Source: a virus
Direction: 5' to 3' (one strand)
DNA length: 55,576 nucleotides
Virus genome (UHGV): UHGV-0320443
A model generated the notes under the pieces. It was not told where the DNA came from. It did no database searches and saw nothing but the letters and a program-made list of their open reading frames with translations. Shown in pieces: positions 1-55,576 of this stretch. Position numbers and translations under genes: made by a program. Every line of letters begins with the position of its first letter. Positions within the stretch are counted from its first letter, which is position 1.

Positions 1-651
1 AACTTCATCTTTGTCTATTGCTGGATGTAACATAAAGAATACGTGCATATCTAGCGATTTGTAGCGCTTGATAATATCTCTGATCTGATTACCTGAGATT
101 CCCCATTCCCTTACAGAAGGAACATCTGGATTCTGATCTGGTCGCTCTTGAAGAGCTTTCTGCATTACAGATTTCATATTCTTCTTTTGCAATTCGGTTA
201 CAGTATCGATCGCAACAGTAAAGTAAATTGGTACTTCAAAGTCTTCAAACTCTTCTTTAGTTTTAACACCAAAGAGAGAACCGATCTGCGCAGCTGCTTT
301 TTTCTTTTCAACTTCATCTGTAGCCAATAGATATTTGTCACGCCAAGTAGTATAGCGAACTAAGAATTCATAGAATCCTTGAATATCAGACCATTCACGA
401 ATTTCTTGATAGTCAACATTCAAACCTTCCAAAGTCAAAGTACCTTCATCGACGTCGGCAATGATAATGTCTTTTGTCATTTTGTGTTGATTTGCTGATC
501 CCAAAAAGTAAGTCTTTCCTGATCCAGGAGGTCCATAGATGATCGCTTTGATGTATCTCGCTGGAAGGATACTCGACGTATCTCTCGCAGATGAATCAGC
601 CTGCTTTACAGCGTCGTTGCTGTTTTTAATTCTTAGATTAAACTTGTTCAT
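1..651 (-). CDS. AAA-type recombination ATPase (Sak4/RecA-like); only the 5' part is inside the window
   Basis: Minus-strand reading from the ATG at 649-651 stays open to position 1. Translation MNKFNLRIKN...IYGPPGSGKTYF contains a Walker A motif. The start overlaps the upstream stop (TAATG). The ORF track missed it because it runs off the edge. Confidence 0.6.
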   Translation of the reverse strand, partial: MNKFNLRIKNSNDAVKQADSSARDTSSILPARYIKAIIYGPPGSGKTYFLGSANQHKMTKDIIIADVDEGTLTLEGLNVDYQEIREWSDIQGFYEFLVRYTTWRDKYLLATDEVEKKKAAAQIGSLFGVKTKEEFEDFEVPIYFTVAIDTVTELQKKNMKSVMQKALQERPDQNPDVPSVREWGISGNQIRDIIKRYKSLDMHVFFMLHPAIDKDEV

Positions 652-27158: not shown

Positions 27159-28847
27159 TTAATGTAGCCTAATGCTTCGTAAAGCGGCTCCCTCTTTTGC
27201 TGTCATTCTCCGTGCAGGTCTATTACCAATAGTTCTTAACAAAATTTCACAAGCATCCAATACGTCATCGTGGTCTACATCTGGGTAACTAATAAATTCA
27301 CTAATGAAGTCTTGGTTATCTGGGTGTACCCAAATTCTACGTGTTTCAAAATGGACTCCTAGAGCCTCAATACGAGCGATCTTCGCCCCATCCCCCATAG
27401 TAGTAGGGATCTGCTTAATCGGCAGCTGAGCACTAATGGCTGTAGCAGCTTGCGCTAAAGCTTTTTGGTATTGAACTGCTTCTATCCCAATCAAGATTGG
27501 TTTGTAGCGTTCATTGTACTCTTGAATCAATCGCAATTGTTCCGTCAATGTAACTCTGGCTTTAAATGTTTCTATAATAAACAAGCGCTGGCTCTTATGG
27601 TGCCAACCACCTACTTGAATACAGAAGAAGTCACTATCACCACTTTCCAATCGTCCGATATAATCCTTATCAGCGATCGCCGGGTCAATCCCTATATAAA
27701 AACTAAGCTGTTCAAATGGTGGGAGTGTTACCTCGTAACCACTTTGAGCAGTTCTACCATAGTAATTCAACCAAGCTGGATTTAACAATCTACCGGTTTG
27801 TGCATTCCGATTGTTCTGGAATAGCTTTTCAAATTTAACTGCTCCAACTGTTCGTTTCTTAGCCATCAACCGTTCGTAAGGCCAGCGTTGGCTTAGTGTG
27901 GTGTGAGTGCTTTCATCTAATGCTTTAATGTGTACATAAGTAAACTCTTCACTCTCGGATAAGACACAATACAAATCTAAGCGACTTTGTAAGGTACCAA
28001 CCATAGCACATTTTCCGCCTTCAACCAAACGGCTAATTACCATTTCTGTAAACCAGTTGTAAATGCTTTCCCTAGTATTGACTGTTTGGCTATTAGTTAA
28101 GTCCAAAATATCATCACATATAATAATATCTAAACGTGCTCCGTTAATAGCGCCCCCGGCTCCTAAGAATTGAAAGGTTGGGTCTTTCGTTTGTCTATCT
28201 TTATCCCGCACTACATATCCTTCAGCCTGTGTCCACTTCTCATTAAAATCAGGCATCAAATATTCACCAAAATCTTCGTGCAGGCGATCATTGTGCTCAA
28301 TGTGCCACATCAAGCGTCGACCAAATCGTTCTGCTTGTCGAGCAGTTCGTGAAAAAATACCCATCCGAATATTTCTATCATTAATTAAATTCCACAAAGG
28401 AAACACTTCACTAATCCAAGTACTCTTCCCATGCTCAATCGGAATGTGTACAATGGTCTGAGCACTTTCCATAACTGCTTGCATCAGTAGGTATTGATAA
28501 TCCTCAGCATCCGTGTTCCATTGTTTATTATAAGGTCTCAGATAATACTCAGCAAATATAACTGGGTTAGCTCTAGCTAACTTGACCCTAGTCTCCTTAG
28601 GCAATTGTTCCATCTTATCCCGGAACTCAACTGCGGATGGTTTTAGTAATAACCGCGGAACGCGTAAATACTTTGCCATTACCTGCTGTACTAAGAAATT
28701 GTCACTTTCAGCCCTAATCTCATCTGTAATCTCATAATCGAAATCGACGGAGTCGACCTCCTCAAGGTTACCTTCGATCAACTGTAACTTGGGCTTATTA
28801 GAATCGCGGACCTTCTCACCATAATATTTATGTACCACGTCTCTCAC
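27159..28847 (-). CDS. terminase large subunit
   Basis: ATPase motifs HIPIEHGKST and DIIICDD, plus a C-terminal RNaseH-like nuclease region (GIDPAIADKD). GTG start. Confidence 0.85.
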   Translation of the reverse strand: MRDVVHKYYGEKVRDSNKPKLQLIEGNLEEVDSVDFDYEITDEIRAESDNFLVQQVMAKYLRVPRLLLKPSAVEFRDKMEQLPKETRVKLARANPVIFAEYYLRPYNKQWNTDAEDYQYLLMQAVMESAQTIVHIPIEHGKSTWISEVFPLWNLINDRNIRMGIFSRTARQAERFGRRLMWHIEHNDRLHEDFGEYLMPDFNEKWTQAEGYVVRDKDRQTKDPTFQFLGAGGAINGARLDIIICDDILDLTNSQTVNTRESIYNWFTEMVISRLVEGGKCAMVGTLQSRLDLYCVLSESEEFTYVHIKALDESTHTTLSQRWPYERLMAKKRTVGAVKFEKLFQNNRNAQTGRLLNPAWLNYYGRTAQSGYEVTLPPFEQLSFYIGIDPAIADKDYIGRLESGDSDFFCIQVGGWHHKSQRLFIIETFKARVTLTEQLRLIQEYNERYKPILIGIEAVQYQKALAQAATAISAQLPIKQIPTTMGDGAKIARIEALGVHFETRRIWVHPDNQDFISEFISYPDVDHDDVLDACEILLRTIGNRPARRMTAKEGAALRSIRLH

Positions 28848-28914
28848 CTCTCTTTATTCTTCTACTCTATTATACCCTACAATGCAGATAGTTGGTAGTA
28901 TTATTTGTGTGTAT

Positions 28915-29065
28915 TCGGGAGACCTCCGAAGGACCCAATGGGAGAAGAGGGGGTAAATTGTATATTTTTGGTGCAAAGACCTGCGCCCTCGCCGGCGTAA
29001 GTGCCCCGCACAAGTTTTTCAGGGGGGGTCGAACTTTGGCTTGAGGCAGCCCCCACTCAGCAGAC
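28915..29065. other. GC-rich non-coding patch (candidate cos/packaging or other cis element)
   Basis: Local GC is far above the window's background. Contains the GCCGGC palindrome and a G7/C5 inverted run. The two track ORFs here lack any RBS. Confidence 0.35.
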
Positions 29066-29089
29066 CAACTCATCCAAACTTTATTTTCA

Positions 29090-29257
29090 GGCTCACCTAA
29101 CTTTTAGTTTCAACTCAACCAAACAATTAATTCAAGTCAGCCCTAGCTTGTGTGTGTGGCGAGCGTGTGTGGTATGTTCGGCCCACCTAACTCTACTATC
29201 CATCTACACTAACAATCTATTATAGTCTACCAGACAATATAGTTAGGCTCACCTAAC
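29090..29257. repeat. three dispersed copies of GGC(T/C)CACCTAAC
   Basis: Copies at 29090-29101, 29170-29181 and 29246-29257, spaced about 80 and 76 bp. Confidence 0.55.
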
Positions 29258-29538
29258 ATTAGCTAGAGTTGATTGAGTCAATCATACTTGACAGTCTAGT
29301 TAGATTAATAATGACAAACGATTTAAATGGATCCACAATGCAAAACGATTTAGAATGTGCATTGCGAATGCATTGGTACTTACTTACCTAGACTGTCTAG
29401 ACTTATTAAGACTATCAATACTTACTTACTTATCCAACCTAGCTACACTCTATACTTATATACTATCATAGTCTATCTATAACTTACCAGGGACAAAAGG
29501 CCCAGCTAAACTTTCCAGGGAAGAAAGAAACATTTTGC

Positions 29539-29573
29539 GGGACATTACTGGCAAGCCGTAGTATAATAAATAT
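29539..29573 (+). promoter_or_regulatory. promoter P1 of the plus-strand island
   Basis: GGGACA-17-TATAAT (-10 at 29562-29567). Shares a 24-nt element GGCAAGNNGTAGTATAATWAATAT with P2. Confidence 0.45.
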
Positions 29574-29631
29574 AGAGATAAGAGTTAGTAAGTAAGTTCC
29601 AAGCCAAGTTAAAAACTTTTAAACAAAGTTC

Positions 29632-29666
29632 GTGCCAAGGCAGGCAAGGTGTAGTATAATTAATAT
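29632..29666 (+). promoter_or_regulatory. promoter P2 of the plus-strand island
   Basis: GTGCCA-17-TATAAT (-10 at 29655-29660). The RBS AGAGGAGAG and the ATG at 29692 follow. Confidence 0.45.
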
Positions 29667-29691
29667 ATAATAAAGAAGAGGAGAGATTCAC

Positions 29692-29898
29692 ATGACAAGA
29701 TCAAGCAAGCAAAAATATTTATTCGTAAGTTTAACAATCAAAAGCTTGTCGGAGGAAATTGACAATTTATATGAAGCTTACTATAACTGGGACATTGATT
29801 ACGATCGTGATCAAATTGCAAAAGTTGTTGAGGAAAAAGAGTTGAAGTTGGAAGAATTAATTGCAGAGCGCAAAGCAATCTTGAGAGGAGAATTATAA
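29692..29898 (+). CDS. hypothetical protein (68 aa)
   Basis: Good RBS. First gene after P1/P2. Confidence 0.5.
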   Translation: MTRSSKQKYLFVSLTIKSLSEEIDNLYEAYYNWDIDYDRDQIAKVVEEKELKLEELIAERKAILRGEL

Positions 29899-30344
29899 TG
29901 AAAACAACATTAAACAATGGCTTGGTCGTAGAGGTTCCTAACACTCGTACAAAGGTTAAAGAGATCGAAATGGTAGCAAAAGTAATTAATGTGGACGTTG
30001 ACAATTTAAATCGTAAGGAAGCTTTGGAAGTAGTTAAGAGCGAATTAGATAAACACCAACGAGTGCTTCTTCTAAATGCTCCAGCTAAGAAGGAAGTTAA
30101 ATTAAGCCCAGCGCAATATAAAAAGCAATTGTCATTAGCGAAATGGGCTAATCAAGATTATGTCGCAGAAGCAGTTGAAGCTTATAACAATGGAGAAATT
30201 TCAAAGTCAGAAGCAATTCGACAATTACATTTCTTGAACGTACCAAATAACTTCATTGCAAAATTAGTCGGAGCTCGTTACCAAATGGTCTTCAACGTAT
30301 TGGATCGCATGGAAGATGCAATGTCAGAAATGCAAGAATTTTAA
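29898..30344 (+). CDS. putative DNA-binding protein (N-terminal HeH/SAP-like motif, C-terminal HTH)
   Basis: PNTRTKVKEIEMVAKV (Rho_N/SAP-like) and ...NFIAKLVGARYQMVFNVL (HTH). It is a paralogue of the minus-strand ORF 35343-35873. Confidence 0.5.
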   Translation: MKTTLNNGLVVEVPNTRTKVKEIEMVAKVINVDVDNLNRKEALEVVKSELDKHQRVLLLNAPAKKEVKLSPAQYKKQLSLAKWANQDYVAEAVEAYNNGEISKSEAIRQLHFLNVPNNFIAKLVGARYQMVFNVLDRMEDAMSEMQEF

Positions 30345-30411
30345 TTGATAGAGAGGCTCAACAGAGCTTGAGCTTCTCCAATGAATTAAAATTTAAATAA
30401 AGAAAGAAGAG

Positions 30412-30843
30412 ATGAAAATGAAAAAATTAATCTTGCCAGCGAGCATCTTGCTCAACATAATGTTACTAGCGAGCGTCAACAGCTTGAGAAATTCAGCTGC
30501 GGAAGCTCAACAGGAACCGAAGGTCGTCACTAAAACTGAGTACGTGACCAAGGAAGTGGAAGTGCCAGTTTATTACGAAAAGGAAGTTGACTCGGGCGAG
30601 CACATTATTGAAAACGACAAAGTGAAAATTGAATACTTCGATCTAGATGATGGAGGCTTTGACATTCTATTCACAGCAAAAGAAGATTACAACGTGCTTC
30701 CAGTATTCACTCGCACAGATGACAAATTTTATCGCGACGCATATTTCACAGGAATGCAAAAGAACTTAGCAGAGATTCACGTAGACAACATGAACGAATT
30801 AAGTCCAGAGTTGAATTGGGACTTTAGCTGGGACAACGAATAA
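30412..30843 (+). CDS. secreted or membrane-anchored protein
   Basis: N-terminal signal/anchor MKMKKLILPASILLNIMLLASVNS with no lipobox Cys. RBS GAAAGAAGAGATG precedes it. Confidence 0.55.
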   Translation: MKMKKLILPASILLNIMLLASVNSLRNSAAEAQQEPKVVTKTEYVTKEVEVPVYYEKEVDSGEHIIENDKVKIEYFDLDDGGFDILFTAKEDYNVLPVFTRTDDKFYRDAYFTGMQKNLAEIHVDNMNELSPELNWDFSWDNE

Positions 30844-30900
30844 TAAAAAGAGAGGCCTGGGTCGGAGTTAATCCGGCTCAGAGCTAAGGAGGAAATTAAA

Positions 30901-31104
30901 ATGTTAACACACACTGAAAAGAAAAATATGACGATCGTAAGATCGATTGGGCAATATATTGTAGAGCATACTAAGGATCAACAAGGCTTCGAAGATTATC
31001 TAGAAGATGAAATGTTCCTTCGCGATTGCCGAGAGCTATTGCAAATGGCAGAAGAAATGCAAGCAGAGCGTGAATCGAAATTGGAGGAGAGCGAATATGA
31101 ATAA
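30901..31104 (+). CDS. hypothetical protein (67 aa)
   Basis: RBS AAGGAGG before the ATG. Confidence 0.5.
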   Translation: MLTHTEKKNMTIVRSIGQYIVEHTKDQQGFEDYLEDEMFLRDCRELLQMAEEMQAERESKLEESEYE

Positions 31105-31405
31105 GCGGGAGATTTACTTTAAAGCGCTCGAGGCAATTAAACCGGAAGAGCTGGTTTGGAAGAGCTACGAAGAAAATGAAATCTTGAAATGGGAATGGGC
31201 AGGTGCAAGAGGAGATTCGATCGGAGGGAAATTATTCTTCCGAATCGATCCTGTGACCAATGTCTTCGCCATGATGGGAATGGAAATTATAAATGGGTCG
31301 AACATTGATCGAGAGCCGATCTATATGACCATGATCGAAATTGAAGAACGGTCCCGAAATATGGACACGATCATAAAGTACCTGCTAGAATATATGGGGG
31401 CCTAG
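31097..31405 (+). CDS. hypothetical protein (102 aa)
   Basis: Start re-set to MNKREIYF (GGAGGAGAG RBS, ATGA overlap with the upstream stop). The track ORF starts at 31007. Confidence 0.5.
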   Translation: MNKREIYFKALEAIKPEELVWKSYEENEILKWEWAGARGDSIGGKLFFRIDPVTNVFAMMGMEIINGSNIDREPIYMTMIEIEERSRNMDTIIKYLLEYMGA

Positions 31406-31420
31406 GGCCTCCTTTTTTAT
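31396..31420 (+). terminator. rho-independent terminator closing the plus-strand island
   Basis: GGGGGCCTAGGGCCTCC palindrome followed by TTTTTTATT. Confidence 0.5.
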
Positions 31421-31432
31421 TGCTGTCAAATT

Positions 31433-31595
31433 GGGCCAAAAGTACCGGGTAAGCCTCGGGCCAAAATGCCCAGGTTAAGTTGGTAGGAAATGCCCAAAAA
31501 AGAGGTTCACCGAAGAAGAGGTCCAAAAGGCCCGTAGAGGGTACAAAAGGATTAAATTGCAGGCATAGTACGGGACAAAGTTACCGAAAAAGCCC
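31433..31595. repeat. iteron-like array of GG(N)CCAAAA(G) units
   Basis: At least six units (GGGCCAAAAG, GGGCCAAAATG, GCCCAAAAAAG, GGTCCAAAAGG, GGTACAAAAGG, CCGAAAAAGCC) in an intergenic region between convergent transcription units. Confidence 0.5.
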
Positions 31596-31769
31596 TGAGT
31601 TCATTGGTCAAGTAGTTCTGTGCCTAAGTTCTTCTTCTTCAACCTATTTCTACTGATTCTTATTAAATCAACGTATATCTCGCTCTACAAGGTTGAATCG
31701 AGAGATCGCCACAATTAATGTCGGAGATACTTATCGCGCGTCAAATCGCTTAAGAGACACAAAAAGGAT

Positions 31770-31801
31770 AAGAAAAAACACATCCAAGTATCAGATGTGT
31801 T
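31770..31801 (-). terminator. rho-independent terminator after the 239-aa gene
   Basis: AACACATC-caagtatca-GATGTGTT stem followed by a U-run on the minus strand. Confidence 0.5.
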
Positions 31802-31808
31802 TACGTAG

Positions 31809-32528
31809 TTATTCTTCAATTGGTTCTGCGGGTTTCGGGGTTAGGATATTATTGATCTCATCCAGCATGTTCAAACTTGAAGAGGAAATCTCAGAAGTGT
31901 TTTGAGTTGAATCTGCTGTTTGATTCACTTGAACTGCTCCATTGCCATTAATGCTTATTCCTACGCCTGGATTTGTTTTAGCTGGCTCGTCCATTTTCAT
32001 CGCAGTACTAACTAAACTTGACAATGCATCGATAGCTTCAGTGAACGTAACCAAGTCGACATTATTGACATCGATCTTAGTTAAAATGACTTCTTGCATT
32101 TTTGGAATTAAATCTGACCAAATCGAATTCATTACCATCGTCTTATTTGCTGCGATCGTTTGTTGCAATTGGGTCAAAGCTAACTCTGTTTGATTGACAT
32201 CAATTATCGCCTGCGGAATATCGTTGCCAACTCTTGTCTCGGCTTTTTGCAATGCATTTTGAACTTTGTTTTCCTCAGGCTCTTCGAAATATTCTAAGAT
32301 CCAAGGAAGCATTTCTTTATGCCTCGAAATTTGCTTTGGCGTAAGTTTTAAATTTTTCTTACCAGCGAACTCAATAATTTCTTTATAAGTTCTACCCGCT
32401 TGAATCATCCCATTAATATCTTTCATAAAGCCCGAATTGGCTATGCCAGAAGTGTTTAAGTAACGTGCGACTTTAAGCTTCTCTTTTTCAATATCTCGGA
32501 ATTGATTATCTAGGTCGTTTTGCTTCAC
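31809..32528 (-). CDS. hypothetical protein (239 aa)
   Basis: GTG start with AAGGAGG RBS, and its own promoter and operator-like repeats upstream. Confidence 0.5.
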   Translation of the reverse strand: MKQNDLDNQFRDIEKEKLKVARYLNTSGIANSGFMKDINGMIQAGRTYKEIIEFAGKKNLKLTPKQISRHKEMLPWILEYFEEPEENKVQNALQKAETRVGNDIPQAIIDVNQTELALTQLQQTIAANKTMVMNSIWSDLIPKMQEVILTKIDVNNVDLVTFTEAIDALSSLVSTAMKMDEPAKTNPGVGISINGNGAVQVNQTADSTQNTSEISSSSLNMLDEINNILTPKPAEPIEE

Positions 32529-32606: not shown

Positions 32607-32639
32607 CACGATAAGTACCTTGGATAGGCATTGTATAAT

Positions 32640-32708
32640 GCGATTTAAAGCGATTTAAAGCTTATCAACATAGATATATGACTCTTATGTTTAATAAGTT
32701 TAAATCGC
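32640..32708. repeat. operator-like decamer GCGATTTAAA: two tandem direct copies plus one inverted copy
   Basis: Copies at 32640-32649 and 32650-32659 (direct) and 32699-32708 (inverted), just upstream of the promoter. Confidence 0.5.
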
Positions 32709-34795: not shown

Positions 34796-35362
34796 TTAAT
34801 TTTCATCGTCGCCCAGATCAAAGTCTGGATCGCGATAAGCAATATCAATTTGCCTATTACCTACTTGATGCACTTCGAATTCGGCAGTATCTAAAATATT
34901 CACCTCAGCTTTATAAACACCCATCGAATTGTCATTGATATATAAATTAGCCAAATTGTCTAATTGCTTGTAGTATGGTATGTTTGTTTCCATCATTTCA
35001 TCTTTATATGGCTTGGTAACAATGATAATCAAATTGCCGATCTTCTTAAAGTCCAAAGGATGATTATGCGATATGATACTAATCATATAAGCATTTTGAG
35101 TCGGATTAGATAAACACTCTACAGTCAGGTTATTAAATTGCTTTGTAAAGCGCTCTAAGTCCTTATCAATGGTTTCGCTACTTTCATTAAGGCCTTCAAC
35201 AGATTGGTCAGGAACAACAGTATCGACTTCTTTTGGAGTGTCTTCTTTCTTGTCGGAAAATAAAGCAATTCCTACAAAGAAAGCGATCGCAGCCCCAATA
35301 GCTAAGATAAACATAATCAACAAGATAACATCAAACACGCTTTCAATCATCATCTTTCTCAT
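34796..35362 (-). CDS. membrane-anchored protein (188 aa)
   Basis: N-terminal TM helix VILLIMFILAIGAAIAFFVGIALF. Confidence 0.45.
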   Translation of the reverse strand: MRKMMIESVFDVILLIMFILAIGAAIAFFVGIALFSDKKEDTPKEVDTVVPDQSVEGLNESSETIDKDLERFTKQFNNLTVECLSNPTQNAYMISIISHNHPLDFKKIGNLIIIVTKPYKDEMMETNIPYYKQLDNLANLYINDNSMGVYKAEVNILDTAEFEVHQVGNRQIDIAYRDPDFDLGDDEN

Positions 35363-35873
35363 CTCCTATAATGTCTTCTAGCTCATCAGCTAGTTTTTCC
35401 ATTCTATATTTGGTGTAGACTTGATAAACATATTGATAACGAACATCCATCAATGAAGCGATTGTAGATCTATCAAATTTCTCGCTAGCCAATAATAATC
35501 GAATACGTGCTGCTTTTGTCATCTTGTCATTATGAATGATTTCGTTGACCCAATCTTCTTCAGCAGCTTTTGCAACTTTGTCATTTACACTTGGTTTCTT
35601 TTCCTTTGCTTTCTTTGGAGCTTTTTCTTTCTTAGGTTTCAGCTCCTCTTTGACTTCCTCTTTCTTAGTCAAATCAATTTCTTCAACCGGTACTGAACTA
35701 TAATCTTTTTGTAACCGAGCAATTTCTTGACCAATACGATCAAATAAAACTCCTCTTGAACCAGATGAATCAATTCCTAATGCTTCAGCTAGCTCTTTTA
35801 ATTCGCTAGCTTTCGTACGTGTGTTTGGGTAGTTGAATGTTTTGCCTCCAGCATTGATAGTTTTCTTTGCCAT
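35343..35873 (-). CDS. putative DNA-binding protein (HeH/SAP-like N-terminus, K-rich linker, C-terminal HTH)
   Basis: PNTRTKASELKELAEALGI and ...STIASLMDVRYQYVYQVY. Paralogue of the plus-strand 29898-30344 protein. Confidence 0.5.
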   Translation of the reverse strand: MAKKTINAGGKTFNYPNTRTKASELKELAEALGIDSSGSRGVLFDRIGQEIARLQKDYSSVPVEEIDLTKKEEVKEELKPKKEKAPKKAKEKKPSVNDKVAKAAEEDWVNEIIHNDKMTKAARIRLLLASEKFDRSTIASLMDVRYQYVYQVYTKYRMEKLADELEDIIGDEKDDD

Positions 35874-36214: not shown

Positions 36215-36416
36215 TCCTTCCTTTATCTTATATATTTATTATATATTAGACTTGACTGCATTGACAGGGCCACGACGTATATATGCAAAAATAAAAGGTT
36301 ACGATTTTCTTACGATGATTTTTAGTACCTAATAAATATATGAAAAGATAATGGGTATTCTCTCATAATCATGCAGAAGAAAGCGATCGATTTTTAGATC
36401 CATCTATAACTCTCGG

Positions 36417-36835
36417 TTAATTTAATTTAAGTTAATAAAACATGCTTTTCTTAACCAGTAGTTCGAACTTTCGGTTAAGAAAAGCATTAAAAAGTAAATG
36501 AAATTAATCGTGTCAATCCTTCTACATAGTGTCAAAAATTGTTTTTATATAATTTATTTATTTATTATTATTTTTTAGTCCTCCCCTAATATATATTATA
36601 TTATACAGCAAAATCAAGCAGTGGGCAATACGTCCAATTGATTTTTGAAGTGAGTTACTAATCCTCCACGTTTGCAAAAAGGACGGCAGACAATCGTAAA
36701 GGGAGGGGCGTCTCGCTGGTCTCATACTACAAGGGCTCTTGGTTTAATAATATTTAATAAAGCAATAAAAAAGCAACCAAAAGTTCGAACTTTCAGTTAC
36801 TTTTCCATATGATTATTAACTTAAATTAAATTAAA
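36417..36835. repeat. pair of about 20-bp AT-rich inverted repeats (TTAATTTAATTTAAGTTAA / TTAACTTAAATTAAATTAA) bounding a 400-bp non-coding segment
   Basis: Arms at 36417-36436 and 36815-36835. The same arms recur at 54267-54280 and 54442-54459. Confidence 0.55.
36442..36487. promoter_or_regulatory. perfect 15-bp-stem hairpin with a palindromic loop (AGTTCGAACT); a second AAAGTTCGAACTTT palindrome lies at 36779-36792
   Basis: ATGCTTTTCTTAACC / GGTTAAGAAAAGCAT flanking the loop agtagttcgaactttc. Confidence 0.5.
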
Positions 36836-36883
36836 TAGATATATAGGGAGTGACCTGTTTCTGCGTGTCTCTTCTTCCGATAT

Positions 36884-39471: not shown

Positions 39472-40464
39472 TTATAAACCTAGCCCTTTCATTTCTTCTA
39501 AAAGTTCTTTCATGACAGGATCACTGTCAGCAACTTTTTCAAACAATGCCATCTTATTAGCTTCTTCATAACGAGCTTGTGCTTTAGCAAACAATTCTTG
39601 CTTCTTAGCAATATTGATCAACAGCTTTTCATTGAAAGCTTGTTGCTCTTCATAAGAGTCGATGCCTACAATGAATTTGGTACCTAATTTTCGATCTTCT
39701 AACTGCTTACTCGCTACCAAACCAATTTCGTAAGTTCTATAAGAATCTACACTAGGTACTACAGCAAACAGCGTCTTTCCAGATTCTAACAAGGCCTTAA
39801 CTTCTGGCTCCATATTGGTAGGTACTACATACTCATATAGTTTTGATCCTGATGATTTTGAAAATTTTACATTGATTGATTTCATGTTTGTTCCTCCTAA
39901 GATATTTTTTATAATATGATCTGGTACTTTAACGCCGTTTGCAGTCAGTTGTTCAACTGCGGATGTCACTTCACTGTCTGTAGGACACTCTTTCTTAATG
40001 AAAGGTGTATCTGGTAGCACTTCATAGCCCAACTCCTTCTTGAGTAGAAATCGATGATAAATATTTTCGTCCAGATAATTATTGACATAGGTGCGACTAA
40101 TATAGGTATAAGGAGTGTTACGCTGCAATATCCTTTCTATCCTTGATCCGAAAACATGATCTAGCTCTCCATAATAGTGTAACACAGCTCCAGCTATCTC
40201 TAAAAGAGCAGTAACTGGTCCTGTATATAAAAACCTTGTTTCTTGATACTTATTAAAACCAGCATCTTCGACCATGTTAGCTAAGCGCTTTCTTTCCTTC
40301 TTTGTAATGTTACTACTAATTGATCTCCACATATACTTATTCAAAAGATCATTGTAATACTTAGCTAGAGGTAACACCTTTGCAGTGAATAGATCATTTA
40401 CAAAGAGGCTAAATGTCGGACTCTCTAGCATCCGATCAGGTGTAGTTTTTTCTTTAGTCATCAC
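39472..40464 (-). CDS. hypothetical protein (330 aa)
   Basis: ORF only. Confidence 0.5.
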   Translation of the reverse strand: MMTKEKTTPDRMLESPTFSLFVNDLFTAKVLPLAKYYNDLLNKYMWRSISSNITKKERKRLANMVEDAGFNKYQETRFLYTGPVTALLEIAGAVLHYYGELDHVFGSRIERILQRNTPYTYISRTYVNNYLDENIYHRFLLKKELGYEVLPDTPFIKKECPTDSEVTSAVEQLTANGVKVPDHIIKNILGGTNMKSINVKFSKSSGSKLYEYVVPTNMEPEVKALLESGKTLFAVVPSVDSYRTYEIGLVASKQLEDRKLGTKFIVGIDSYEEQQAFNEKLLINIAKKQELFAKAQARYEEANKMALFEKVADSDPVMKELLEEMKGLGL

Positions 40465-46562: not shown

Positions 46563-47273
46563 CTACTTCATACTTAATAATGAAAGTAATTCCTGTTTTG
46601 CTGAAGCGTTCGCTGCAAAGACTCCTCTAACTGCAGATGTTGTAGTTGTTGCTCCACGTTTATGTGCGCCTCGGCCACACATGCAGTAATGCTCTGCGTT
46701 AATAATAACGGCAGATCCGATTGGTTGTAATACATCTTCAATGGCGTCAATGACTTCCGTTGTAAGTTTTTCTTGAACTTGGAATCGTTTTGCATATCCA
46801 TCCAATGTTCTAGCGAATTTGCTAAGCCCAGCAATTTTATTTGAAGGAATGTAGGCAATGCTAGCTGTTCCGAAAAACGGAGCAAAGTGGTGCTCACACA
46901 TAGAGTTGAATGGAATGTCTTTGATAAGGACAATGTCTCGGCCGTTAACGTTAGCTTCAAAATCTTTGAGCAAGTGTTGCTTAGGGTCTTCGCCATATCC
47001 CTCTGTGTACTCAAGGAAGGCTTTAAGCACTCGGAAGGGCGTCTCTTGTAATCCATCACGTCTAAAATCATCTCCACATATAGAAATTAAAGCATGCAAT
47101 CCTTGTAAGGCAACATCAATAGGATTATCATGATCTTTATCAGCACGCATTTCTGATACCGTAGGAAAATCATAAGCAGCCTCTTTAGGTAATCTTGGGC
47201 GGATTAATGCTTCCAGTTTTTCCTCTTGTTCCTTAGTTAATAAATTGTCTTTAAAAATATTCTCTACTGTCAT
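46563..47273 (-). CDS. folE: GTP cyclohydrolase I
   Basis: MCEHHFAPFFG active-site motif. Start re-set to MTVENIF (GAGGAG RBS). Confidence 0.8.
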   Translation of the reverse strand: MTVENIFKDNLLTKEQEEKLEALIRPRLPKEAAYDFPTVSEMRADKDHDNPIDVALQGLHALISICGDDFRRDGLQETPFRVLKAFLEYTEGYGEDPKQHLLKDFEANVNGRDIVLIKDIPFNSMCEHHFAPFFGTASIAYIPSNKIAGLSKFARTLDGYAKRFQVQEKLTTEVIDAIEDVLQPIGSAVIINAEHYCMCGRGAHKRGATTTTSAVRGVFAANASAKQELLSLLSMK

Positions 47274-47277
47274 GTAA

Positions 47278-48123
47278 CTATACTCCTCTCGCATTTGCAT
47301 ATACTAGTGTGTGTAATTGTGGTAATGGACGTACGTTGTTAAAGTCGGGATCTTCTAGAACTTTATCCCATAGCCAATGTAGCTTCTCTAATAACCGTTC
47401 CGATACATCACCTGCGGAAGTAGAGTCTTCGTTTCCTACTGATACGTACATTGGTTGAGTTCCGCACTTATCTTCATAACGTTTCACTACTGTCCGAGCA
47501 TATTCGAAATCTTCATCATTAAAGATAACTACTTTCATAGTCCAGTTAACGTTATTTTCATTCAAGCGATCGACAATTTTGTCAAGTACTCGCCAATTAG
47601 TTTTCATTAGTGAACTAGGTGGTTTAGGACTCATTACAAAGTCATCAATGTGTACGAACCAATCCTGCCAGTTCACTCCTTGTGTTTCGACAGAGAATTT
47701 GAATTCATGTTCTTGTTTCATAATCCGAATAAATTCAGCCATCTCTTCGCCTACTAGAGAAGGGTTTCCTCCAGTCAGAGTGATATGCTTACAATTAGTT
47801 CCTCCACTAGAAAGAGCTAATACTTTTTGTTCTAGTTCACGTGGAGTGATCCATTCAGGTTCTTGAGATCCATCCCAAGTAAATTTAGAGTCACACCATG
47901 AACAACTATATTGGCAGAAGGCGGTACGAACAAAAATAGTCTTTTGTCCGATAACCATACCTTCACCTTGAATCGTAGGACCAAAACATTCCATGTAAGG
48001 AATTAAACCTTTACGTTTTTCCATCTTTAATCGATCAGGTCTATAATTTTTAGGACTTTCATTATAGGCTTCGATCTTTTCTTTCAACTTTGGGTTGCTA
48101 ATGTTTTGAGTACTAGGTTTCAT
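47278..48123 (-). CDS. queE: 7-carboxy-7-deazaguanine synthase (radical SAM)
   Basis: FGPTIQGEG...AFCQYSCSWCDSKFTW shows the CxxxCxxC cluster and QueE N-terminal signature. Confidence 0.8.
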   Translation of the reverse strand: MKPSTQNISNPKLKEKIEAYNESPKNYRPDRLKMEKRKGLIPYMECFGPTIQGEGMVIGQKTIFVRTAFCQYSCSWCDSKFTWDGSQEPEWITPRELEQKVLALSSGGTNCKHITLTGGNPSLVGEEMAEFIRIMKQEHEFKFSVETQGVNWQDWFVHIDDFVMSPKPPSSLMKTNWRVLDKIVDRLNENNVNWTMKVVIFNDEDFEYARTVVKRYEDKCGTQPMYVSVGNEDSTSAGDVSERLLEKLHWLWDKVLEDPDFNNVRPLPQLHTLVYANARGV

Positions 48124-48132
48124 AATGTCCTC

Positions 48133-48690
48133 CTAATCAATCATGACTTCATCTGGATCATATTCAATTCCTTTGTGTTTGTGGATAGCATAAACCACAA
48201 GAGCACCAATACCTTGAAGAACTGTTTTAACAATAATTTGTCCGATGATAGCATTAGGTACTTGATCCCAAGTTAAAACACCCATTCCTAAAGGTGATAG
48301 ACCTATCAAGACAAAGATAGAACTGTCAATTGTTCCACCAAACAAACCACTAACAAAGATTCGTACGTACATTGGTTGCTTCAATCGAGTATAAACTTCG
48401 GTGTCCATTGATTCGGAAAAGATGAATGAGATCGCAGAAGCGAAGACCACCCATAAAGTATCCCCTAAGAAAGCAGAAACAATAGCGCTCAAGATCAACG
48501 CAGCTACAATAATTGAATAAGTCTTCTTACGTCCAAATTTGTTTTGAACTAAGTCACGAAGGATAAAAGTAAATCCGATAAAGAAAGTTCCAAACGGTAC
48601 AAAGAAAGGCCCGAATGCTACTGGTGCGAAAGTTGCTGTTACTACGTTTGCTGCTGTGATCCCTAATAAGTATAAAAGTATTCTAATCAT
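48133..48690 (-). CDS. yhhQ: YhhQ-family (DUF165) membrane transporter, putative 7-deazaguanine precursor importer
   Basis: 185-aa multi-TM protein with the YhhQ-like start ...ANVVTATFAPVAFGPFFVPFGTFF...ILRDLVQNKFG. Embedded in the que operon with 4-nt overlaps. Confidence 0.55.
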   Translation of the reverse strand: MIRILLYLLGITAANVVTATFAPVAFGPFFVPFGTFFIGFTFILRDLVQNKFGRKKTYSIIVAALILSAIVSAFLGDTLWVVFASAISFIFSESMDTEVYTRLKQPMYVRIFVSGLFGGTIDSSIFVLIGLSPLGMGVLTWDQVPNAIIGQIIVKTVLQGIGALVVYAIHKHKGIEYDPDEVMID

Positions 48691-49214
48691 TTTTGTTCTC
48701 CATTCGTAGTTAGATTGAAATTAGTATCCATAAAGTTTTCGCCATCAAAGAACACAACATTTTCGAACATGTTTTCACTGATAGATAAAATACTTTTGAA
48801 CATGTAGTTGCGATAGTCGTCACGATGAATCATAGCAGAACCAGTAGGCGTCTCCCATAAAGCAACTCGCCATACAGGTAGATCATGTTTATGACACCAC
48901 CACATAATGAACAAGGCCATATTTTCCGCAGTCGTCCTAAAGCCAAAGCGAACAAATTTTGTATCGATAGATTCCATAACTGGTTCATTGCCTTGAGCTA
49001 AGAATGCATGATCTAAATGATCTAGCAATGGTTTGATCTTTTCTTTAACATCAGTAAAGTCCATTACCATACCACTTGACGACCCACGATGCTCTAATTC
49101 GCCTTTCATTGATACTTGTAATTTGTAAGTATGGCCATGCACATTAGCACATTTACCATTATGTCCTACTAGTTGGTGAGCTGAATCAAAGGTAAATTCT
49201 TTTGTGATTATCAT
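48687..49214 (-). CDS. queD: 6-carboxy-5,6,7,8-tetrahydropterin synthase
   Basis: TKEFTFDSAHQL...CANVHGHTYKL contains the QueD/PTPS motifs. The start overlaps the queC stop (TAATG). Confidence 0.8.
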   Translation of the reverse strand: MIITKEFTFDSAHQLVGHNGKCANVHGHTYKLQVSMKGELEHRGSSSGMVMDFTDVKEKIKPLLDHLDHAFLAQGNEPVMESIDTKFVRFGFRTTAENMALFIMWWCHKHDLPVWRVALWETPTGSAMIHRDDYRNYMFKSILSISENMFENVVFFDGENFMDTNFNLTTNGEQK

Positions 49215-49954
49215 TAGAATAATCCTCCTTGATAAGCATAAGATTGACAACCTGCCCAATCAATATAGTTTTCATATTTAACTGGATCTACAATATGATT
49301 GTATTTGAAAGCATTAACACGATCAATACATGTACCACAATGACCACATTGATCTTCATGCCCTTCGTAACAAGAACGAGTCAAGTGTAAAGGAGCGCCT
49401 AATTCTAATCCTAAAGTAACTACACCAGCTTTGTTTTTCATTAATAGAGGAGCATCAAGATTTACTTTATGTCCTGAGCCTGCAAAGATCGCACGATCCA
49501 TTGCTTTGTAAAATTCTGGAGTACAGTCCGGATAAGCTGAACCAGCTGCATCATCTGAATGAGCTCCATAAACAACTTTGCTAGCACCAATGCTATATGC
49601 ATATGCTGCGGCTTGACTTAACATTAAACCGTTTCGGAAAGGAACATATGAATCAACAGTACCTTCACCATTTTCTTCAATAATTTCTGCATAGCTCTTA
49701 TGAGATAATTCTCCATTGCCTTTAAGCAAAGTGCTATCACTCTTTGAAAACAGCTGCGGATCTACTGTTAGTACTACGTGCTCCACGCCATATTCTTTTG
49801 CTACGTTTTTTGCATTCTCGATCTCATTGTCATGTTTTTGACCATAAGAAAAAGACAGTGCGTGGACATTATCAGGTCCTACTTTCTTTACACTGTCTGC
49901 CAAACACACCGTGGAGTCCAAGCCACCACTTAATAATACTACTACTTTTGTCAT
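49214..49954 (-). CDS. queC: 7-cyano-7-deazaguanine synthase
   Basis: VVLLSGGLDSTVCLA PP-loop and C-terminal CGHCGTC zinc motif. Start re-set to MTKVVV (GAGGA RBS). Confidence 0.85.
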   Translation of the reverse strand: MTKVVVLLSGGLDSTVCLADSVKKVGPDNVHALSFSYGQKHDNEIENAKNVAKEYGVEHVVLTVDPQLFSKSDSTLLKGNGELSHKSYAEIIEENGEGTVDSYVPFRNGLMLSQAAAYAYSIGASKVVYGAHSDDAAGSAYPDCTPEFYKAMDRAIFAGSGHKVNLDAPLLMKNKAGVVTLGLELGAPLHLTRSCYEGHEDQCGHCGTCIDRVNAFKYNHIVDPVKYENYIDWAGCQSYAYQGGLF

Positions 49955-50581
49955 ATTCCTTTTCCTCATTTCATTTTTTATTTTATCCTGGTGGTTTGTT
50001 TCACCAGTCTAACTGGACCGGAGAGGAATCGCACCTCTCAATTAACTAAAGTAATATATGAGCGCTCACTACATTACCGTCGATCCAAAAAGAAAAACTA
50101 AATAGAAACCGTTACCTGAGAGAGATGTTGGGAGCTCATACCGCGAATTTGTGTTTTGTGATGAGTATGAGACTTATTTTTTAGAAAAAACTCAGGAGAG
50201 CTCCCTTGAGCGGATTTATTACACGGGACTAAAGCTCTACCGTGATCAGTCTTTCCTGACAGCCAATAACTACTGCACACTTGTACTCAATGTGATGCGG
50301 TGAGCAAGTTATACGAGCTTGCTCCATTGATGCAAATGCGACATACAACTTTATTTATTATTCGTACAACAAATGACTTTTCCCCAACGCGCTTGAGTTG
50401 ATTAATCATTTATTTTGTAGAGAGTTTTCCCAGTAACGATTTCATATTTAGTTTTCAATGTTGCGCACTATGATTGAAAAAGTTGAATTTCATGTATTTG
50501 ATTGAGACAGAAAGGCAAAGTTAGTCAACCAGAGTGTTACGCGAACTTAGTTATTTGATGGCCATCATTTAACTATACTTA
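49955..50581 (-). ncRNA. long structured 5' leader / candidate regulatory RNA of the que operon
   Basis: About 600 nt between a good promoter and queC with no credible ORF, GC above background and several stable hairpins (for example 50021-50039, 49988-50007, 50130-50205). Confidence 0.3.
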
Positions 50582-53615: not shown

Positions 53616-54188
53616 TTAATTTGCTGGGTCGTATTCATACAAGCACTCATTACATTGCCATGTACCGTCGCCATAATCTAAAATGTCATTGCTATTACAC
53701 TTAGGACAAAAGTCAGGCGCTTCGAGAGGTTCATCTGCGGATGTGGTCTCAGAGATGGCCGTAGGCTCGGGTTGAGGCTCTATATCAAAGACAGGGCTGG
53801 CAACATCTAAGTGCTCAGCTTCTTCAACGGTAGATGAAATGTCTTCAATAGTTTTAGTAGTGTCAAAGAACGTAGCGCCATTGTAATTAATTGATAAATT
53901 ATCACTAATTAAATCAGCAACGAAACGAGGAAGAAATTCATGTAGGCATCCTGCCCAAAACTTATCTTCAATCAGTTCTAATTGTTTCTCAGAAATAACT
54001 ACACCAATATGCACAGGTGTGAAATCAGCACGTTCGGTATTCAAATTTAATTCTCGAACTATTTGAGATACTCGTGCTGGGGTAATATCTAATTCTTCAG
54101 AAATTTGTTTTTGATTAAAACCTTCGTCGTACAGCCTCGCGACATCTTTGTATTTCTGAATCTTAGGGTGAACATTATTCTCGCTCAT
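53616..54188 (-). CDS. putative transcription regulator: sigma-70-region-4-like HTH plus C-terminal zinc ribbon
   Basis: GFNQKQISEELDITPARVSQIVREL (HTH) and CPKC...CNEC. Confidence 0.5.
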   Translation of the reverse strand: MSENNVHPKIQKYKDVARLYDEGFNQKQISEELDITPARVSQIVRELNLNTERADFTPVHIGVVISEKQLELIEDKFWAGCLHEFLPRFVADLISDNLSINYNGATFFDTTKTIEDISSTVEEAEHLDVASPVFDIEPQPEPTAISETTSADEPLEAPDFCPKCNSNDILDYGDGTWQCNECLYEYDPAN

Positions 54189-54540
54189 GAAAAATCTCCT
54201 TTATTAAAAAATAATTAGAAAAAGAAAGAAGAGACAAATTAATATCTCTTCTATATTATACACCTATTTAATTTAATTTACAATAATTTTTTTGCGATTA
54301 ATTAAATATAATTAAATATAATTATATATTTTTTCTCTTCATAGACTTTCCTATCTATAATTATATATCATTAAAATAGCAATAGCAACAAGTTTTTTCA
54401 TGACAACTATTTATGGGTGTTTAATTTTTTATATGGAAATCAACTTAAATTAAATTAACTAGAGTTGAGGAAAGAGATACAAAAAATATTCTTCTTCTTT
54501 TAAAAAACATACTATCATTATAATGTTTAAAGAAAGCAAA

Positions 54541-54570
54541 TAAAAAACCCCTATCTTTACGATAGAGGTT
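54541..54570 (-). terminator. rho-independent terminator after the 169-aa gene
   Basis: CCTCTATC-gtaaa-GATAGGGG stem followed by UUUUUU on the minus strand. Confidence 0.5.
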
Positions 54571-54577
54571 CACTTTT

Positions 54578-55087
54578 TTATTCCACTTCAAATGGTAAAT
54601 CTGCTTCTAAGCTAGGTGCATCAGCTAAAGAAGTATCTTCTCCGCTTGGTGCTTGTTCAGCTGTTGGATCGAAATCTTCATCAGCTAACTTAGCATTCTT
54701 AACTACGTTTTGTAGTTCGTCTTGATAAGTCCGAGTTCCCAAAGTAATTTTAACTACTTTACCGATCAAGTCTGATGGTGAGAATTCAAAACCAGGTGCG
54801 TTCAATTCTTCTGTTGTCCAAATGTCAGTAGCTACTAATAAACCTTTCAAGCTAAACAAAGCTTTTGGTGAATAAGAGTAGTTAGAAAACACACGACGAT
54901 TGCGAGCGCTGTTACCATTTTTGTCATGACCATCTAAAATGTTAAATTGAATTGACAAATAAGGATATTGCTTACCTTCTTTTTCCTCTGCTTCGAAAAT
55001 TGATGCGTGATATGTTCCTGCTGGCAATGCCTCAAAACTCATATCCTCTACTTCTGAAAAATTAAAACCCATTGCGACCATGTACAA
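54578..55087 (-). CDS. hypothetical protein (possible ssDNA-binding or annealing-associated protein partnering the Sak4-like ATPase)
   Basis: 169-aa ORF with an acidic C-terminal tail (DLPFEVE), positioned by synteny only. Confidence 0.35.
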   Translation of the reverse strand: MYMVAMGFNFSEVEDMSFEALPAGTYHASIFEAEEKEGKQYPYLSIQFNILDGHDKNGNSARNRRVFSNYSYSPKALFSLKGLLVATDIWTTEELNAPGFEFSPSDLIGKVVKITLGTRTYQDELQNVVKNAKLADEDFDPTAEQAPSGEDTSLADAPSLEADLPFEVE

Positions 55088-55186: not shown

Positions 55187-55576
55187 TTAAACAGGTGCGT
55201 CTGAATCTATTTTGGCATCGTCCTGAGATTTTGGCTCTTCTTTTGGAGCTTCTTTCTTAGGTGTTTCTGCCTTAGGCTCTGCATGCTCAACCATTTTTTC
55301 TTTTGGCTTAGCCATAGTAGATAATTTCTTCTTACGAAGATTCTCAATAAGATCGAACATCTTAGGAATAGTAGGCATAGATAGTCCTTTTCCTAGAGCA
55401 CCAGAACGATCTTTCAATGCGGTATGTTGTCCAAATGGTTGCACATATAGATTGTTGGCGAACTCGCCAGTCTCTTTATCAACCGTAGCAGACATATAAC
55501 CAACGATATCGACATAGCCAGGAACTTCAGGAGCTAGTTTACCTGGAAGTGATGGTAATTGAGTTACTGTTCCCAT
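55187..55576 (-). CDS. hypothetical protein; the 5' end may lie beyond the window
   Basis: The ORF reaches the window edge and its C-terminus is K/E/P-rich. Confidence 0.35.
   Translation of the reverse strand: MGTVTQLPSLPGKLAPEVPGYVDIVGYMSATVDKETGEFANNLYVQPFGQHTALKDRSGALGKGLSMPTIPKMFDLIENLRKKKLSTMAKPKEKMVEHAEPKAETPKKEAPKEEPKSQDDAKIDSDAPV

Follow-up and report, generated by a model that had tools for sequence, protein, structure and literature searches.

A repeat array between the terminase genes

We analyzed a non-coding repeat array at positions 31433-31595 of UHGV virus genome UHGV-0320443, a 55,576-nt stretch of DNA (hereafter, the window) that represents the complete genome (~55.6 kb, assembled as a circle) of a siphophage. 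The array is located between terS, a putative small terminase gene (stop codon at 31809), and terL, the large terminase gene (start at 28847). It lies 213 nt from terS, on its downstream side, in a convergent intergenic region flanked by the terminator of terS and that of an accessory cassette of small open reading frames (ORFs) on the + strand (Table 1). An initial annotation of this DNA had described repeats without coding capacity between two terminators, and the sequence is as described: the repeats and both terminators are present, the gap contains no ORF of more than 58 amino acids (aa), and the units fall in different frames, which contain stops. The six to seven degenerate copies of that annotation were counted here as seven copies, all on the + strand, of which two (u1 and u4) are perfect dyads, three are near-perfect, and two are degenerate.

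Alignment of the units defined a 14-bp imperfect inverted repeat, GGKMC-AAAR-GKMCC, and two or three of the sites in the array are strong, the other four or five being weak sites or half-sites. The spacings between successive units are 25, 33, 29, 20, 32, and 11 bp. The initial annotation had also read the A-tracts as phased at helical multiples and the DNA as bent, and neither reading was supported. Rayleigh tests at periods of 10-11.5 bp gave p-values of 0.05-0.86 for these irregular spacings, and a wedge model of curvature resulted in a predicted end-to-end ratio of 0.91-0.92, only the 17th-20th percentile of the genome. The array is better described as a cluster of dyad sites than as an iteron-like array.

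Table 1. Positions in the window of the repeat units and of the features that surround them
Feature	Position	Strand	Description
u1	31433-31446	+	Perfect dyad, GGGCC-AAAA-GTACC; invariant in 12 of 12 covering sequences
u2	31458-31471	+	GGGCC-AAAA-TGCCC; 1 mismatch to the half-site pattern
u3	31491-31504	+	Degenerate, TGCCCAAAAAAGAG; 1 mismatch to GGNCCAAAA
u4	31520-31533	+	Perfect dyad, GGTCC-AAAA-GGCCC
u5	31540-31553	+	GGTAC-AAAA-GGATT; left half-site only
u6	31572-31585	+	GGGACAAAG; GGGAC-AAAG-TTACC; 1 mismatch to the half-site pattern
u7	31583-31595	+	ACCGAAAAAG; degenerate ACCG-AAAAA-GCCC, overlaps u6; invariant among strains
x	29490-29503	+	Solitary perfect dyad, GGGAC-AAAA-GGCCC; 1.9 kb from the array
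Intrinsic terminator of the cassette	31396-31419	+	7-bp GC stem (31396-31412) and T6
Conserved non-coding spacer, array to terS terminator	31601-31775		175 nt; 2.9% divergence
Intrinsic terminator of terS	31768-31802	-	12-bp stem (31802-31776) and T-run
Putative terS	31809-32528	-	239 aa; full-length homology to the gene upstream of and overlapping terL in relatives
terL	27159-28847	-	Large terminase
Accessory cassette	29692-31405	+	Five small ORFs of 68, 148, 143, 67, and 102 aa
Tandem sigma-A-like promoters P1 and P2 of the cassette	29539-29660	+	Two copies of GGCAAGnnGTAGTATAAT

Clustering of the units

The clustering of the units is far beyond chance. A search with GGNCCAAAA that allowed at most one mismatch matched at 31433, 31458, 31491, 31520, and 31540, in each case on the + strand. 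Exact GGNNCAAAA occurs 12 times in the genome (both strands, 111 kb), with four of the occurrences within 108 bp in the array and one at 29490. Four copies on the same strand within 120 bp compare with a maximum of two in 300 genomes simulated with a first-order Markov model. The pattern GGKMCNNNNGKMCC, again with at most one mismatch, gave nine matches where 2.7 were expected, a number that none of 100 shuffles reached, and seven of the nine fall in the two non-coding flanks of the + strand cassette. All six genome-wide matches to the AAAA-centered dyad form (two mismatches or fewer) are in the array or at 29490. When the genome was scanned for clustered 8-mers without reference to the motif, the array ranked second overall and first among non-coding regions, the top rank being taken by a coding tandem repeat at 4.1-4.4 kb.

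Cassette promoter P1 has its -35 hexamer 35 nt downstream of the solitary copy x. Copy x resembles u2 over more than the core, with about 24 of 34 positions alike, which suggests that the ancestral unit was longer and that the copies arose by duplication; the program TRF no longer finds a tandem array here. With the same motif at x and in the array, on either side of the cassette, the motif brackets the cassette.

Conservation among strains

Further strains were recovered by searching with the cassette protein ORF102, which resulted in about 10 distinct haplotypes of the intergenic region from independent, unrelated metagenome samples (12 sequences in the unit counts). The terS-array-cassette-terL layout is common to all of these haplotypes. 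In comparison with strain L111, 3.6% of array positions and 2.9% of spacer positions are different, whereas the flanking genes differ at 12-21% of their third codon positions (Fisher test, p = 7e-5 for the array and p = 1e-7 for the intergenic region as a whole). In comparison with strain L006, the corresponding values are 6.5% and 2.9%, versus 10-15% (p = 0.06 and 1e-4). The intergenic region evolves 2-5 times slower than flanking synonymous sites, and this slower divergence relative to third codon positions indicates purifying selection; positions 31688-31808 are almost invariant between strains.

Both u1 and u4 are perfect dyads in every sequence, and the sole polymorphism in u4, C31523A (GGTCC to GGTAC), retains the consensus. 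Positions 3-4 of u2 vary among strains between GC and TA or CA, these being the degenerate K/M positions, and polymorphisms at positions 3-4 of the units mostly stay within the K/M alphabet (GGGCC/GGTAC, GGTCC/GGTAC), with a C at 31460 in one sequence. The substitution T31581G turns u6 into a perfect dyad (GTACC) in seven of the 12 sequences, and G31580A restores its A4 center in two others. Most strains carry A31498T in u3, and about half carry A31545G in u5. Copy x is identical in the window, L006, L111, and L112, even though L111 is variable in the 15 nt that adjoin it on the 5' side. Of the alignment columns, 10 of 94 inside units and 16 of 70 in the stretches between them are variable (p = 0.05). 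In two strains, other sequence of equal length has taken the place of nearly all of the 11-nt spacer that separates u1 from u2, and the inter-unit segment 31472-31490 is invariant. Two hypervariable patches are embedded in the conserved non-coding DNA, one just 3' of the last unit (31598-31608) and one that takes in the u1-u2 spacer together with the left half of u2 (31447-31461).

A lineage-specific insertion in the terminase operon

The siphophage is kin to the Bacillus subtilis phages BSP7/BSP19/BSTP5-12 and to Weizmannia phage Youna2, with TerL identities of 68-70%. In all relatives examined (BSP7, Youna2, L009, L010, and L108, among them two IMG/VR genomes and a more distant Logan genome), terS and terL overlap; here, they are separated by 2.96 kb (28848-31808) of DNA that was found in none of these relatives. 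The ORF at 31809-32528 was designated a putative small terminase because it is a homologue of the gene directly upstream of terL in the relatives, with TerS identities of only 30-35%. A single-sequence AlphaFold model of TerS was unusable (mean predicted local distance difference test score of 39.9), and a TerS profile had no match in the PDB. TerL carries an N-terminal extension of about 40 aa that is not present in the relatives.

Judging from these comparisons, the array is part of a lineage-specific insertion of about 3 kb between terS and terL that consists, in order, of a control region, the + strand cassette, the cassette terminator, the array, the spacer, and the terS terminator. The array is conserved in all strains of the lineage and absent from the relatives named above, in which only scattered background matches to the motif and no comparable non-coding cluster were found. 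As the array is in DNA that is missing from relatives with overlapping terS and terL, it is not the ancestral origin or pac site of this phage group. DNA searches with the intergenic region and the control region against 50,697 phage records yielded no relevant match, and neither IMG/VR searches with TerS or TerL alone nor metagenome scans with the conserved array sequence returned anything. A gapped repeat pattern matched 93 loci in IMG/VR that are collagen-like coding sequences (89 of 107 matches are open GXY repeats) and irrelevant to the array. A collagen-like Gly-Pro-Lys coding repeat (GGN-CCA-AAA) was rejected for the array itself on account of the differing frames and stops mentioned above.

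The cassette proteins have no database homologues, and ORF102 and ORF148 are without meaningful homologues in the phage database. Within the genome, ORF148 (29898-30344) is a paralogue of ORF176 (35343-35873, early region; E = 2e-6). Both proteins feature an N-terminal PNTRTK...SAP-like motif and a C-terminal RYQxVxxV segment resembling a helix-turn-helix (HTH), and ORF176 has a sub-threshold match to the SAP domain (21.1 bits against a cut-off of 23.9). On these features, both are candidate DNA-binding proteins. All lineages have ORF148, with hardly any variation in its HTH-like C-terminus. The cassette looks like a hot spot of accessory-gene turnover: among L006, L111, L114-L116, L120, and L122, ORFs of 58, 69, 79, 87, and 68 aa come and go in the equivalents of 29692-31100, and ORFs of 148, 141-144, 67, and 102 aa are present in all strains.

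Strains differ by only about 1.5-3% in the 844-nt non-coding control region (28848-29691), which is a candidate for a cos or packaging region or for a complex regulatory one. The promoters for terL and for the cassette diverge from within it. Its other features are a GC-rich island with a G7 run (28915-29060), three copies of GGCTCACCTAAC (29086-29257), an imperfect inverted repeat of 34 nt (29269-29302 and 29385-29418), and the motifs TACTTACTTAC and AATGNCAAACGATTTA, each repeated. Shuffled sequence folds better than a segment that encompasses the island (28905-29075; z = +1.1 and +1.5), which does not point to an obvious RNA gene. A conserved 186-nt region upstream of terS holds a TAAAGCGATT tandem repeat (2.6 copies, 32636-32661).

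The array as a proposed cluster of protein-binding sites

We tentatively read the array, with a probability of roughly 0.42, as a selected cluster of sites for one sequence-specific, probably dimeric, DNA-binding protein that is tied to the cassette. The clustering, dyad form, pattern of conservation, position, and lineage-specific context of the units are as described above and resemble those of an operator cluster, in that dyad sites are repeated, the pattern is enriched, the perfect sites are invariant as dyads, and polymorphisms keep the consensus. Two good terminators isolate the region transcriptionally, as expected for an element that works at the level of DNA. The general idea of the initial annotation, that of cis-acting repeats recognized by a protein, is supported by the clustering statistics and the purifying selection, whereas its origin and partition options are disfavored (see below).

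We infer that a phage protein, possibly ORF148 with its SAP-like N-terminus and HTH-like C-terminus, would occupy the cluster cooperatively. The bound cluster might then loop to the promoter-proximal x and subject the cassette to auxiliary-operator control, or it might, as a nucleoprotein block, keep the converging transcription of the cassette and of terS apart. The first of these options follows the OL and OR operator clusters of phage lambda, which act by long-range looping. As in lambda, the array contains several imperfect dyad sites (14-17 bp) of unequal strength and spacing, of which the best conserved are the strongest, and partner sites about 2 kb apart bracket a small block of genes. 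The lambda operators differ in that they overlap promoters and are arranged as three plus three, whereas about seven plus one are present here, in one orientation, with no recognizable promoter overlapped and with looping that is conjectural. The temperate Bacillus phage phi105 controls its immunity region by means of repressor operators that are 14-bp asymmetric direct repeats. Like the array and x, these are same-orientation 14-bp units in a Bacillus-type phage, some of them far from the main promoter region; unlike them, they are immunity operators of a temperate phage, whereas the phage analyzed here looks virulent and its motif is unrelated in sequence.

Several observations weigh against a binding-site cluster. 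No promoter-like site was detected within 31406-31808, so the array is not a classical promoter-overlapping operator, and x lies upstream of the -35 hexamer and not over the promoter. The asymmetric A4 center has the same orientation in all copies, which a site for a symmetric dimer would not need. Conservation between the units indicates that the recognized unit may be longer than 14 bp or that other factors may bind. ORF148, the candidate binder, has no significant Pfam or PHROG match. Finally, the element is confined to one lineage and therefore lacks deep comparative support. A role connected to avoidance or enrichment of GGCC restriction sites was considered and dropped, since GGCC is not strongly avoided genome-wide (51 observed versus 70 expected).

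If the array is such a cluster, a virulent Bacillus-type phage would carry an accessory cassette that probably serves interaction with the host and that has operators of its own, and insertion of this cassette between the terminase genes would uncouple the ancestral translational overlap of terS and terL. The 14-bp dyad would be a direct handle for finding an uncharacterized phage DNA-binding protein, with the strain series supplying natural site variants. The element would be a fairly ordinary kind of phage control element, and the finding, also if the array has a packaging role instead, is incremental and not field-changing.

Alternative explanations

The location between terS and terL leads to a packaging element, one of the options listed in the initial annotation, as an unlikely but credible alternative. 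The array would be either a pac- or cosB-like array recognized by TerS or a set of same-orientation repeats that flank a terminal repeat as in T7, and in the latter form physical genome ends or a concatemer junction would be situated between terS and terL. Known pac and cos regions contain groups of short direct repeats, and the pac region of SPP1 has three such groups (PMC4737164). The pac boxes A, B, and C of SPP1/SF6 are, like the array, short direct-repeat sets near terS of a Bacillus phage and candidates for TerS recognition (PMC4737164); however, the SPP1 pac spans promoters and the start of terS and depends on intrinsically bent DNA (PMC4737164), whereas the array is downstream of terS, past the terS terminator, with ordinary predicted curvature and no predicted bend. 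With respect to the T7-type form, CCTAAAG units are numerous in the left end of T7, irregularly spaced and in one orientation, and some of them, such as GGACCTAAAGTTCC and GGTACCTAAAGCCC, resemble GGTCCAAAAGGCCC and GGGCCAAAAGTACC of the array, and the SRL and SRR arrays of T7 share with it irregular, same-orientation CC(T/A)AAAG-type cores in non-coding DNA next to early promoters. The function of these T7 arrays is itself not settled, and they differ in copy number, which exceeds 15 over the first 350 nt of the left end, inside and beyond the terminal repeat at a physical end, as opposed to seven copies with dyad character in a siphovirus that is unrelated to T7 save for a weak match in the TerL ATPase. 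The best solved-structure matches of TerL are T7 gp19 (4bij, E = 1e-5) and a second large-terminase entry (8dgc), presumably from a T7-like phage, but this similarity covers only about 90 residues. Although the neighboring control region, with its GC-rich island and GGCTCACCTAAC repeats, is strongly conserved, we consider it rather improbable that the roughly 3 kb between terS and terL constitute the physical ends or concatemer junction, with the GGNCCAAAAG array and the GGCTCACCTAAC repeats as counterparts of T7 SRL and SRR around a terminal repeat. All assemblies are circular with no ends visible, the extra copy x is at a promoter well away from the array, and the absence of this DNA from every relative examined argues against an ancestral packaging site; the literature on Youna2 and the BSP phages holds no packaging or terminus data. 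If the array had a packaging role, it would show where the pac or terminal region lies in an unstudied (BSP7/Youna2-like) phage group, and ends in the terS-terL gap would make the strongly promoted orphan-gene cassette the first DNA to enter the cell and would mean that the packaging/entry end had moved into the middle of the terminase operon. A replication origin, which the initial annotation listed among its options, or an auxiliary origin, with iterons bound by the 989-aa primase-helicase or another initiator and the copy at 29490 as a second site, is improbable. Same-orientation repeats in a transcription-free zone of a phage that encodes its own primase-helicase and family A DNA polymerase are compatible with an origin, the one-orientation direct repeats in non-coding DNA are a feature shared with lambda ori and plasmid iterons, and the copy about 2 kb away is reminiscent of P4, in which the origin (ori) is accompanied by a distant second repeat site (crr). 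Iteron origins, taken as at least three direct repeats of about 17-22 bp with regular, helically phased spacing, differ from the array, in which spacing is irregular and phasing is not significant. The array is also GC-rich (49% GC, 51% AT) relative to the genome (38% GC) and has no adjacent AT-rich DNA unwinding element, the AT maximum within 31406-31808 being 70% in 60-nt windows, a value that about 10% of windows in the genome equal or exceed. The genes for the DNA polymerase (41.1-43.7 kb) and the primase-helicase (50.6-53.6 kb) are more than 9 kb from the array, the neighbors, terS and the orphan cassette ORFs, provide no linkage to an initiator or replication gene, and the lineage-specific element is absent from relatives with an orthologous primase-helicase. 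Positions 54190-54580, an intergenic stretch that averages 80% AT and reaches 93%, are a much better candidate for a replication origin or for an early promoter. They include three copies of TAATTAAATA and are bordered by a gene for a single-stranded DNA-binding (SSB)-like protein on one side and by the gene for an HTH protein at 53616-54188 and that for the primase-helicase on the other, and BSP7 has a gap at the syntenic place. Nothing shows that the array is a replication origin. A partition site was likewise not borne out: no parA/parM/tubZ-type NTPase or centromere-binding protein gene was seen among the neighboring or scanned ORFs, which are part of the ORFs in the genome, and the phage appears virulent, the description also given to Youna2 (PMC10468668).

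The variable content of the cassette, with extra ORFs of 58, 69, 79, and 87 aa and an ORF of 68 aa gained or lost between strains, would be explained if x and u1-u7 were recombination sites that bound an exchangeable cassette and are recognized by a recombinase, and same-orientation copies are indeed found on both sides of the cassette. This is very improbable, as the ORFs scanned yielded neither an integrase nor a recombinase, gene gain and loss occur inside the cassette and not at the motif copies, and an att or res arrangement with seven copies at one end and one at the other is not known. An element that acts as RNA, either a structured non-coding RNA or a series of GGGCC-AAAA-GGCCC mini-hairpins, transcribed from one strand or the other, is scarcely to be expected. 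The + strand can fold into a long imperfect hairpin (31431-31497), a model in which 95% of alignment cells are still paired, but the folding energies are not significant (z = -1.67 for the + strand and +0.5 for the - strand, and likewise for the whole gap), Rfam returned no relevant match at the gathering threshold or at E <= 1, and there are no tRNA or tmRNA genes. Covariation analysis with RNAalifold and pair counting on 4 and 9 haplotypes found 0 of 43 pairs to be compensatory across the nine; the variation in pairs is all one-sided and in roughly half of cases breaks the pair, and the majority haplotype no longer has the inner stem GGGC/GCCC. Given that the gap contains no promoter-like site and is closed off by a terminator at each end, the array is better explained as an element that acts as DNA. 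It is also improbable that the array is a relic without function, in which a tandemly duplicated unit of about 25-33 bp has decayed as a passenger of the inserted DNA. The similarity of u1/u2, u2/u3, and x/u2 beyond the core does suggest an origin by duplication, the tandem array is no longer detectable with TRF, and the divergence from L006 is only marginally under the synonymous rate. Against decay, however, stand the much lower divergence of the array from L111 relative to flanking third codon positions (p = 7e-5), the invariance of the perfect dyads in all haplotypes, and substitutions that preserve or improve the consensus.

Other features of the genome

Nearly all phage genes are on the - strand. 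Structural and lysis genes occupy a block at about 4-28.8 kb, and a replication and nucleotide-metabolism block encodes the family A DNA polymerase, the 989-aa primase-helicase, the SSB-like protein, an exonuclease, and a QueC/QueD/QueE/FolE set. The latter (46563-49969; FolE-like GTP cyclohydrolase, QueE, QueD, and QueC) is a full 7-deazaguanine (queuosine-precursor) set that is also present in BSP7 and suggests a modified guanine in the phage DNA. A DpdA-type transglycosylase was not identified, and a 330-aa ORF at 39472-40464 is without a family match.

The identical sequence is present in independent ENA and Logan assemblies as 55,631- and 55,606-nt contigs. Both ends of the window (1-650 and 55187-55576) fall inside one gene, a P-loop NTPase ORF with the Walker A motif GPPGSGKT, and this cut within a gene fits a circularized assembly. 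By coordinate arithmetic, ENA ERZ28648238 scaffold_38 (L113; 55,631 nt, circular) begins at about 28847 of the window, which is the start of terL and the edge of the control region. Other assemblies begin at unrelated positions, and the start point of L113 may be due to chance or to pipeline rotation. A further AT-rich non-coding region of 670 nt (36215-36883) contains a motif of about 27 nt in two copies (AACCAGTAGTTCGAACTTTCGGTTAAG and AACCAAAAGTTCGAACTTTCAGTTAC) that are about 320 nt apart, together with several short AT tandem repeats.

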